Positions 43,787 to 57,239 are shown, counted from the first letter of the stretch. The stretch is 64,000 bases of DNA from Octopus vulgaris (GCA_951406725.2 OX597831.1:16616001-16680000); one strand, 5' to 3'. Notes: generated by a model from the sequence alone, not told the origin. Translations and numbers: made by a program.

Positions 43787-45393
43787 ATATATATATATAT
43801 ATATATATATATATATATATATATATATACAGAGAGAGAGAGAGAGAGAGAGAGAGAGAAAGAGAAGAAAAGATGAGTCATAGAAAGAGAGGCTATATAC
43901 AAATAGAGACATATATTTAGGTGAATATGTTTCCTGTTTCCAAATAAATGATCTGCTCGAAACGTAACACAACGCAGTCTTTCTTTCTTTAAGCGTCTTA
44001 TTACTACATCGAATGCGCTACGTCTCGCTTTGTTTATTCGTCACCTTTTTGTTTCCCTGCTTTTTCAATCAACTATATATATATATATATATATATAAGT
44101 ACAAAATGAGATAGTGGTTATGAGTGTAAACCACTATGGGATATCAGTTATCCAATATACTGCGGGTGAAGCACCTAAATGGCAAATACATAAATGCTTA
44201 TAATTGCAATGCAATTAATTCATTTATTGTATTAGATGGGCGAAAGTAAAATATTTTACCTCAAAATCATAATACAAATAAGAAAATGGAGGAGCAGATT
44301 CACTTCAATCATCAACTTACGGATATTACCAATTCATATTATTTATTAACTACATAAATAGGAACATCCAAATCCAACAAAACAAAACAATATACATCAA
44401 TACGTAAGATGAGAAAATCATAAGAATAATACACATAAAATGGATCTTACAGCTGTTTCAGCCTATAGATAAAGGTATCTCATTCTGCCTATATTAGTCA
44501 GATTTATTGAGGTACTATGTAGTTAAAAATGAGTCACTTATATATATATATATATGTATATATATATATATATATATATATATATATATATATATATATA
44601 TATATATATATATTTATATATATATATATATATATATATATATATATATATATATATACATCTCAAGCCCTCGTCAGAGATTATAAAATACAATTATAAA
44701 AATGCAAATACACATACACAAGAATATATATATATACATAAGTGTATACACTTATGTATATATTTGTCCCTTCCGTTATATTTTACCCAAAATAAATGTT
44801 CAAATGTAAATGTGCTCTTCAAAAACTGGACTGAGAATAACAAAAGGATAAAAGTACCACCTGCCTTTATAGCAAGTTCATGCCACTGACGTATACATGG
44901 GTGTGTCTCTGTGTATGTGTCTGTGTGTGTATGTGTGTGCGTGTGGAAGAATTTCATTCGAATGAATGGACACAATTATTTGCATTTTTCAAGTTTAGTC
45001 GCTATTCGATCGTTCTTTTCTCACCACCACTCCGTTAACCTCTAAACCAAAAGCTTCCATACGCATTCCAAAATGATTTAAGAATCATGAAACACTGTAA
45101 ACTTTTCTAAAGCATTATTTCGTATCCGATACATGCAATTGACACAGCTAAACACCTGTTACACTGCATCTCATTATATGTACATGCATACACACTTACA
45201 TATATATGTATATATATACTTACATATAGACATACATACGTATATACATACATATATACATACATATATACACATAAATGTATATATAAATACATGTATG
45301 TATATATATATATATATATATATATATATATATATATATATCATTGTTAGGGACTAAAAGACATTGCGTTATTGCTTGTCTTTTCCGCCACGA

Positions 45394-54391: not shown

Positions 54392-57239
54392 ATAAAATAT
54401 GTCCTGTTTCAAATGTACATCTATTTCATCGTACTTTTTCTTAATGGAATACCAGTTGCTTATCTTCGAAATCAGCCACAATGTTTTTGAATACCTTGAC
54501 TTCTGTTGAGCATTATTTTTTATGTACCGTCAATGTTTGAGATGTACTTTTCTTTACATAGATTTTTATATTACGTAATGTTCAATGACTACTCGTCTGT
54601 AGGTTTTCTACAGTCTCTCCTATATTAATATTACGTAAACTTGTAATATATACATTGGATTATCCAGTCATGAACGAGAAATGATGTTTCAGGAAAAATA
54701 AAGCGGTAATCATGTTCTATGTACACACAGTCTTATCATATGCGGCCTGCTGTTTACTTGAAATCATTATGGCACATGGAACAAATGGAGGACTCAGTTT
54801 TCTCCAGTGCTTGTGGATCATTTACTATGTGTTCTCTACATAGGAAGGCAAGGCTTGCTTTGTTCAGTTCCGTAAATCCACGATGACGGGCAAAGTTACC
54901 ATTTAGAGGATCAACGTTTTGCATGCGTGGTGCCGATGTTGGAGTCGACTTTGCTCAGAGGGGAAGCAGGACAGTTATCATTCCTGCGTTCTGATGATTC
55001 GTTTTCCGAAGATGTGAAGGGAATGTTTTCGCTTCAGATTGTCTTTTAGTTTGTCTTTGAAGTGGAAGTATCGGCCGTATTAAACTAAAAAAAATAATAA
55101 TTATCGATATAATTATGATTATGAAAGACCGATATAGCAAAAAGTGATAGAGTGCATAAAAAGACATTGCATCCTTTGTTGCTGCTGCAGTATGAAATGT
55201 TATCTCTTGCTACATCGTATAATATTTTCTATTGCATATTATGAATTATGATTTTCGTCTGGCAATCTGGGCTTCTCTGGATTGTCTTAGGTAATCTGCT
55301 GCTGTATTTCTAAAAATGAGCATTAATGAAGGCTTTCATTAATTGGGAGTTTTCAGAGAAATTTATTAAGAGAAATTTTTTTAATAGAGTGAAAATCCAG
55401 AATATGTTTATCTGGTACGTTATGGTAAATACTATACGGAGTAAAATCGTCATAAAAAGGTATTGAAAGAATGTTAAAACATCTTTGGTCACCCGGAATT
55501 TAAATAATACATGATTATAACATTTCGACAGTTGTTGAGGCTGTGAGCTTGAAGAATCATTACTCCGCCCGTTAAATACTCAGCGGCTGATTTCGTCCGT
55601 CTTCACATTATTAGTTTAGATGCTATTTAGATGGGCTTCCTGTTCCAACATTTCGAGGTCGATAATAAATGAACCAGGTGAGTATCAGTGTAGATGTAAA
55701 CGTATTGTCGCTACCAAAATTGCTGGCATTGTCCCAAAATTTCAAACCAATATTTCTATAGGTGTTGTTCATTTGGAATATAACCGTTTTGAGGATCTTA
55801 ATAATGACATAACGTTTGGCAACCCAGCTTTCTTGTACAAAAGTACAACACATATACCACTCTGTGAACATTGGTAAAGGTTTTAAAAGAGATATCCATA
55901 TATTTTAGCAATGTGCGAAAGTTATACATCAAGCTTTCCTTGTAAGTGCTATCCGCCATCTACACCGTGTATCAATCAATCTCAGCCTATCCGCATTTAA
56001 ATTAGGTTATTGCGTTCCAGCTGACATCTTATGACTTGAAGGTTATTCACACAGAAGCATACACACGTATGTACATACGTGTACATGTAGAAAGAATGAA
56101 GTAACAAGAAAGCCGGAGAGAGACGGATGAAATACACGCATCGCCGACAAAAACGGATGCATGTGGGAGCAAAAATGGCCGTTACATGTGAAATTATTGA
56201 TTATAGACGCGCAAACCTAAAATGGTTACAGTGCATATGAATATGCTTCCATAGAGCACCGCAAAAGTATTGAATGATTTTAGATATGATGAAATGTCGT
56301 AACGAAGCATGATTGAATTAGATACAGATTATCAAAATATTTAAATGGGCTATAGATCTCCGCAGAAATGAAAATGAGTTTGTACATTAACTGCTAATCA
56401 TAGGTCTCACCGAGAGGAAATCTGCCAATTTTATTTTCTTAATTTTTACAATTATGGACGTGTGTTGAATATAACAGTGCAAGGGTTTTGGAAAACACCT
56501 AATGTTGGAAAAGCTCAATTCATAGTATGGGAACAGGTGTAAGAACTGGATTTACCCATTACCCATTTTCTCCAAAGTTGGTGTTTCTGAGAAAAGCCCT
56601 TTTTCCTACGATTGAGCTTCTTACTAAACATGCAACACATCAGGTGTTTTACAAGAAGTAAAGGACCTAAATATATCGTATAAATAAGCTCAAAGAATCT
56701 TTAGTGATCCAAATAAAAATGTATGGATGCAAGTTGTTGGAATTTTACGAATAAAAGCATTAAAATACATGCTGATAAATACATCAAATGCATAAATTTC
56801 AGGGGCCTTAGAATACAAATTTGGAAAGACGATTAAATATTTTGTTGTGTAAACACTGAAAATCTTATGTGGACTCTGGTGGGGGCCATATAGACCCCTA
56901 CTTGAAAACCACAGTTGTAATTTATTCTACATACAATTTTCGTTAATAGCATGTGGTTAAGTGCAGTGAATTAAATTTCTGTAATATGATGTCTGTGGTT
57001 TTTCGACTGAAATTTTTTTGTATAAATCTCTGCACAAGTTTATTTCAGAAAAAAACTTTCGTCGGATTAATAGCATTTCCCTTCTTATAGTAGAAGATAG
57101 TTTACAATATCAGTATGTCTCTACAAAACAATGCAGGATCGTAAGGATGTGTACATATCTTACAAAATGTTCAAAATTTAGGTATGTTCGCAAGAGTATA
57201 TATATATATATATATATATATAGTCACTTATTTCCCTAG

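Follow-up and report, generated by a model that had tools for sequence, protein, structure and literature searches.

The third of three tandem gene units in a 64,000 nt stretch of Octopus vulgaris DNA (GCA_951406725.2 OX597831.1:16616001-16680000; the whole stretch is called the window here) is a mosaic of tracts that almost match the first two units and tracts that are strongly diverged. Each internal diverged tract carries one of the exons 2, 3 and 4 of a predicted small surface protein. We consider it probable (about 0.6) that selection seeded islands of divergence over exons 2-4 in converted tandem copies, and that insertions then enlarged and locked these islands. The process itself is textbook; the gene carrying it is an orphan.

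Tandem units and the mosaic of unit 3

The window has a GC content of 35%, and (AT)n repeats and retroelement fragments are abundant. Units were defined by repeat-masked self-BLAST of the window, which resulted in three collinear units (Table 1). From position 13534 on, 67 of 10818 sites (0.6%) distinguish U1 from U2. Intron 1 of U1 carries a 5.5-kb LINE-containing insertion (7949-13533), in which a degraded LINE and SINE-like pieces were seen. Judged by their motifs, its minus-strand frames are reverse-transcriptase- and endonuclease-like. The insertion site is the position of a SINE that is common to U2 and U3; U1 has an empty site there. Because this SINE is shared and the upstream flank of U3 is also present in U2, U2 may be the product of an unequal crossing-over that joined a B-type 5' part to an A-type 3' part. 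U1 and U2 may also be two alleles of the assembly rather than true copies, and a mis-join of alleles is possible because the U1/U2 spacer contains noisy palindromes. The A-versus-B mosaic is independent of how U2 arose.

The palindromes of the U1/U2 spacer (26693-30506) are long and gap-rich and lie between (TA)n runs; the U2/U3 spacer has none. The first (about 26787-28558) was 95.2% self-inverted with 35 gap openings and the second (28700-30505) 97.8% with 15. They may be fold-back read artefacts or inverted-repeat elements. Elements with inverted repeats that are found only in the A type lie in introns 3 and 4 (18215-19170, 20606-21852, and their U2 copies), and degraded LINE-like fragments flank the array at 1905-5614 and 57224-58584.

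For the comparison of U2 and U3, 10 collinear self-BLAST blocks were aligned, and microsatellites (+5 nt) and unalignable insertions were dropped. The alignment showed 605 differences in 7082 sites, and a two-state HMM gave rates of 2.5% and 18.7%. Counted per 100 sites, the differences had a variance of 69.7, a value reached in none of 10000 permutations (maximum 13.1), which contradicts uniform divergence along the unit, the finding that the original prediction had named as speaking against a mosaic. The predicted alternation itself was clearly recovered, with four tracts at 1.2-3.0% and four at 18-21%. U1 versus U3 gave the same profile. The predicted boundaries were nearly exact, within tens of bases, except that high tract 2 starts nearer 48580. 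The three internal diverged tracts had been listed correctly and the fourth, at 54882-55180, had been missed; the tracts described as near-identical or identical are indeed low in divergence, but at 97-99% identity they are not identical.

High tract 3 showed 313 differences in 1736 sites over 52019-54236, and 51462-51974 was unalignable. The tract is internally heterogeneous (8.8-23%, p=4e-7), with a dip of 8.8% at 53279-53758. Only 39 of its 1736 aligned sites are coding, so 98% of the tract is non-coding, with exon 4 at its 5' edge.

Exons 2, 3 and 4 lie in one internal high tract each, and exons 1 and 5 lie in low tracts. In 200000 random placements with fixed lengths, set up post hoc, exons 2-4 each fell into a tract of their own with P=0.0026 and all fell into any high tract with P=0.036. 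The claim that each diverged tract holds one mature-domain exon was thus borne out for exons 2 and 3, and for exon 4 with the correction that this is a 39-nt stalk exon outside the cysteine domain.

Table 1. Units, tracts, exons and insertions, in positions of the window. Divergence of tracts is for U2 versus U3.
Feature	Position	Strand	Evidence or divergence
Unit 1 (U1), copy A type	about 7201-26631	+	masked self-BLAST
Unit 2 (U2), copy A type	30607-44538	+	masked self-BLAST
Unit 3 (U3), gene copy B, mosaic versus U1/U2	44659 to about 55180	+	masked self-BLAST, alignment
Low tract 1: upstream, exon 1, most of intron 1	44664-47418		72/2421 (3.0%)
High tract 1: end of intron 1, most of exon 2	47419-47695		51/273 (18.7%)
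Low tract 2: last 12 nt of exon 2, most of intron 2	47696-48578		15/773 (1.9%)
High tract 2: exon 3 between two U3-only insertions	48579-50872		85/398 (21.4%)
Low tract 3: part of intron 3	50873-51461		14/590 (2.4%)
High tract 3: exon 4, most of intron 4, several copy-specific insertions	51462-54236		18.0% where alignable
Low tract 4: end of intron 4, exon 5, 3' UTR	54237-54881		8/644 (1.2%)
High tract 4: outer 3' flank	54882-55180		47/247 (19.0%)
U3 exon 1, predicted signal peptide	45394-45439	+	46/46 nt identical in all three units
U3 exon 2, signal end and Cys1-Cys3	47620-47707	+	64/82 nt as in U2, plus 6-nt in-frame indel
U3 exon 3, Cys4-Cys6	49114-49201	+	58/88 nt as in U2; also in model P0001
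U3 exon 4, stalk and candidate GPI attachment site	52035-52073	+	24/39 nt as in U2
U3 exon 5, coding part, hydrophobic GPI-type tail	54332-54391	+	60/60 nt as in U2
U2 exons	31364-31409, 33915-33996, 35111-35198, 38664-38702, 42376-42435	+	
U1 exons	7840-7885, 15720-15801, 16916-17003, 20471-20509, 24508-24567	+	
U3-only SINE-like insertion, high tract 2	about 48658-48930		
U3-only 1.6-kb insertion, high tract 2	about 49210-50831		starts about 8 nt past exon-3 donor
Downstream signal-peptide gene, first two exons	60406-60466, 61411-61450	+	within 60406-61450

The predicted gene and its relatives

The five-exon gene model is intact in all three units, with GT-AG sites, matching phases and open frames. 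It predicts a protein of 104 aa in U1 and U2, where the proteins are identical, and of 106 aa in U3; the coding lengths of U2 and U3 differ by one in-frame indel only. Exons 2 and 3 encode the mature six-cysteine domain, which spans 49-51 residues with gaps of 7, 10/12, 8, 7 and 11. The predicted proteins have a hydrophobic N-terminus and a polar exon-4 stalk that ends in small residues, the same in both copies. By hydropathy, the last 13-14 residues are hydrophobic, without a charged tail. According to the part of PMC5054108 available to us, a GPI signal consists of a polar linker, small residues at the attachment site, a spacer of about 7 and a hydrophobic C-terminus that lacks a cytosolic tail. 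Inspection and hydropathy matched these regions, and the N-terminal signal, in the predicted proteins. The product is likely a small GPI-anchored six-cysteine surface protein; judged by its anatomy, it would most likely serve binding or recognition at the cell surface, with two specificities. By hand reading, an exon at 45772 was discarded as a candidate, because a stop arises behind exon 1.

Intron 4 contains a possible alternative last exon at 53254-53620 (U2 40943-41350), with an AG acceptor in phase with exon 4. Its open frame has 7 aa in U3 and 20 aa in U2. All three units have a single AATAAA in the same position, and divergence dips to 8.8% here. Such an exon could possibly yield a soluble isoform. 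Sequencing runs contained 5-8% of the words (17 runs guessed to be RNA) or 25-42% (3 unlabelled runs), values that say nothing on expression or the mosaic.

A profile of exon 3 had a single match among 1.84 billion representatives, P0001 (CAI9735838.1, hypothetical protein, Octopus vulgaris). P0001 matches five stretches of the window letter for letter and is therefore an automated model of this same locus, not an independent relative. The model is chimeric (47204-61450): it has an intronic start, continues with exons 3-4 of U3 and then runs into the downstream gene. Its junction of exon 3 to exon 4 is the same as in our five-exon model, the other junctions of which have no counterpart in P0001. 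The P0001 exon at 47204-47254 was rejected, being intronic in the five-exon model and lacking a signal peptide.

No homologue was found for U3 exon 3, U2 exon 2 or the downstream gene with short, length-limited queries, which are weak negatives. Pfam gave no family for any of the four single-exon pieces (26-29 aa) or for P0001, and the PDB sequence search had no match. In the ESM Atlas the feature search gave no usable match and 10 structure rows stayed under the naming bar (query model pLDDT 0.33); among metagenome contigs, none of 536 pattern matches was confirmed. Since every query was one exon or the chimeric model, all of these family searches are weak negatives. Helical cysteine-rich families such as DUF19 or GDNF/GAS1 are possible leads for the domain. 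Ly6/uPAR three-finger proteins have 8-10 cysteines and a terminal CC...CN motif, and were rejected on this pattern, as the six mature cysteines include no adjacent pair. ShKT domains end in a tight C-x3-C-x2-C. They hold six cysteines in about 35 residues, as stated in the accessible part of PMC6409789, and an ShKT identity was rejected on the wider span and the gaps found here. Small GPI-anchored cysteine-rich surface proteins share the signal peptide, compact cysteine domain, polar linker, small residues, spacer and hydrophobic end; the likeness is in architecture only, as no sequence family matched.

The off-window part of the downstream gene, as contained in P0001, shared 9 of 21 residues with exon 2, with three aligned cysteines (pairwise E=0.001). 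The downstream gene is possibly a distant fourth member of the family.

Selection, insertions and the age of the diverged tracts

Codon differences between U2 and U3 were absent from exon 1 (0/15) and exon 5 (0/19) and affected 39 of 70 codons in exons 2-4, where all six cysteines were kept. Nucleotide divergence of exons 2-4 was 22-38%, above the adjacent non-coding DNA. pN was 0.303, compared to 0.176 for non-coding sites (Fisher p=1e-4), and pS was 0.288. With the non-coding baseline, omega was 2.2 (about 1.6-3.0, p=8e-6), and it was also 2.2 with the exon flanks only. Taking the 778 sites of the most diverged block as baseline lowered it to 1.7 (p=0.003), and taking a peak of 420 sites chosen by hand lowered it to 1.4 (p=0.07); calculated from codons alone, it was 1.05 (p=0.90). 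The heterogeneity within high tract 3 makes the neutral baseline uncertain. Amino-acid change outruns the flanking non-coding change in exons 2-4, to an extent that depends on the baseline.

Large indels were listed by hand. Seven of the eight lay in high tracts, and these were all seven that distinguish U2 from U3; one is the left edge of high tract 3 itself. In high tract 1, a 306-bp insertion of U1/U2 lies 47 nt to the right of the left edge, and the 6-nt indel of exon 2 is 23 nt from the tract edge. A short inverted-repeat element centred on (TA)n, present in U3 only, occupies the left edge of high tract 3 (51462-51650).

The position of these indels agrees with a neutral explanation, in which conversion was real, transposons or large indels blocked pairing nearby and the exons were passengers. 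We give it a limited chance of being correct. Peak 2 is bounded by the SINE and the 1.6-kb insertion close to the exon-3 donor, tract 3 begins at a breakpoint and is almost entirely non-coding, and omega from codons alone is about 1. Indels are also named as conversion terminators in the accessible parts of PMC3924837 and PMC3728101. Against neutral shielding stands the presence of one exon per peak. Peak 1 ends on the right within exon 2, at the last amino-acid difference, and the closest large indel is about 230 nt away; beyond this edge there is 1 difference in about 215 nt. The 5.5-kb heterology of U1 intron 1 has no diverged halo (4/148 and 10/293 sites), though it is possibly younger than the conversion. 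Tracts protected by selection would also retain indels preferentially, so that both models predict indels gathering in unconverted tracts.

The original prediction held that conversion was selected against over the mature exons. The one exon per peak and the amino-acid excess speak for this, but selection was not separable from blocking by insertions, because all seven large U2/U3 indels are in high tracts. The mean conversion tract in humans is given as 250 bp in the available text of bioRxiv 10.1101/135152. If octopus is similar, this length would fit the first two peaks, whereas the 2.7-kb peak would be too long. It is unlikely that the 39-nt exon 4 alone explains this long third tract.

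Non-coding divergence of the four high tracts was 16.3, 17.7, 17.6 and 19.0% (203, 310, 1697 and 247 sites) and homogeneous (p=0.90). In total, 2457 non-coding sites were at 17.6% in high tracts, and 4310 were at 2.5% in low tracts. This result supported the predicted homogenization, which would have followed an older duplication and covered the upstream region, the signal exon, the middle of introns and the tail. In the low tracts, 109 of 4428 sites still differ, which is about 1/8 of the divergence in the high tracts and four times that between U1 and U2; 77 of the 109 are specific for U3 versus both U1 and U2. No GC bias was seen among these 77 changes (28 vs 31, unpolarised).

The uniform old level also bears on an explanation in the reverse direction, in which U3 is a young (2.5%) duplicate of A that imported its exon segments from an older third paralog by diversifying conversion. 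We regard this as unlikely. The four low tracts are compatible with one divergence level (p=0.057), and the downstream gene suggests that further family members exist. However, the 3'-most homologous stretch (54882-55180) also has 19% divergence, like the internal peaks, which argues that the old level reflects the age of the duplication rather than imported patches, and the downstream gene is far too distant as a donor.

It is very improbable that the low tracts were created by collapse or polishing of the assembly, as the original prediction had considered. The two noisy palindromes suggest poor assembly nearby, and one 209-nt stretch is the same in U2 and U3 and different in U1. Against this artefact, the low tracts keep the mostly U3-specific substitutions described above, with a transition/transversion mix (49/60) resembling that of the high tracts (204/229), and seven switch points would be needed within 10 kb. 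A recent duplication without conversion and with accelerated evolution of exons 2-4 only would fit the excess of exon over adjacent non-coding divergence, but protein selection cannot speed up kilobases of intron, and the divergence of the high-tract introns therefore leaves this explanation virtually no room.

We found no sign that conversion is ongoing, as had been proposed. The longest identical run of U2 and U3 (209 nt) is expected under a uniform 2.5% (P=0.39) and gave no sign of recent exchange, and differences between U1 and U2 were no denser in the low, convertible tracts (23/3602) than in the others (44/7216). U2 equals U3 at 54237-54445, with 4 substitutions and a 15-bp indel separating them from U1 (nominal P=0.004 and 0.015, post hoc). 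This segment is a candidate for a recent B-to-A conversion tract, or for a polishing slip.

Selection followed by locking through insertions would proceed as follows. A tandem duplication, presumably old in view of the observed divergence of 16-19%, would have given copies A and B. The exposed part diverged, with amino acids faster than non-coding flanks, to a degree that depends on the baseline, and with the six cysteines kept. Copying would have reset four tracts at roughly 1/8 of the duplication age, and converted tracts that would have replaced exons 2-4 were presumably purged. Insertions would have survived where copying failed and would then have hampered pairing, which may be the best account of the long third tract. 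Copy A may finally have been duplicated again into U1 and U2, unless these are two assembly alleles.

Significance and comparison with known systems

If this is right, exons 2-4 are marked as the part that matters in an otherwise unannotated octopus gene. It would also point to a fast-evolving surface protein family that was missed by the public automated model, which holds two of its exons fused to the next gene. The locus is useful as a test bed, as selection and transposon shielding differ in their cross-species predictions. A further-reaching reading is rather doubtful. It sees the gene as part of a so far undescribed family in octopus, made up of very small recognition proteins with six cysteines and a GPI anchor. 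Conversion would keep promoter, signal and anchor uniform in this family, positive selection would maintain different binding faces, and the exon from 53254 would possibly provide a soluble form. Recognition would here mean binding of gametes, self/non-self or microbes. Under that reading the locus would test whether selection makes islands first and transposons lock them later. Literature listings on cephalopod cases and on the gene family mention neither this gene nor such a case in an octopus, for which the locus may be a first worked example.

The closest known system is the 'peak of divergence' under gene conversion in the primate red/green (LW/MW) opsins (Teshima and Innan 2008, in the account given in PMC3924837). 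Both systems have tandem paralogs, homogenised introns and divergence kept over exons with amino-acid differences. Unlike the opsins, the octopus locus has three peaks of 0.3-2.7 kb with much intron and large indels, and its 2.5% is a residual divergence in a single assembly rather than demonstrated ongoing conversion. The low-divergence flanks and sharp local peaks of the opsin type were present (2.5% versus 18.7%). Each internal peak holds one changed exon, but exon 4 is at the edge of tract 3 and not at its centre. The absence of indels that could stop conversion, a criterion used in the part of PMC3728101 available to us, was not seen here, as the peaks hold all of the listed large U2/U3 indels. 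By this comparison the locus appears to work like an opsin-type peak of divergence, and strict membership fails on the indels.

In the Leptodactylus ATP1A1 R/S tandem paralogs, selection was proposed to keep paralog-specific residues against non-allelic conversion (bioRxiv 10.1101/2020.08.04.234435, accessible part). That case comprises 12 residues, several species and functional assays, whereas the octopus case comprises 39 of 70 codons and whole exons in one assembly. The Tigriopus gene pairs GOT1p1/p2 and GOT1Sd/Sr also have divergence islands amid converted sequence, and the accessible part of PMC3728101 distinguishes exonic islands that selection keeps and that are free of indels from intronic islands that end at indels. 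The octopus locus mixes both cases: peak 1 resembles the selection-kept type and tract 3 the indel-terminated type.
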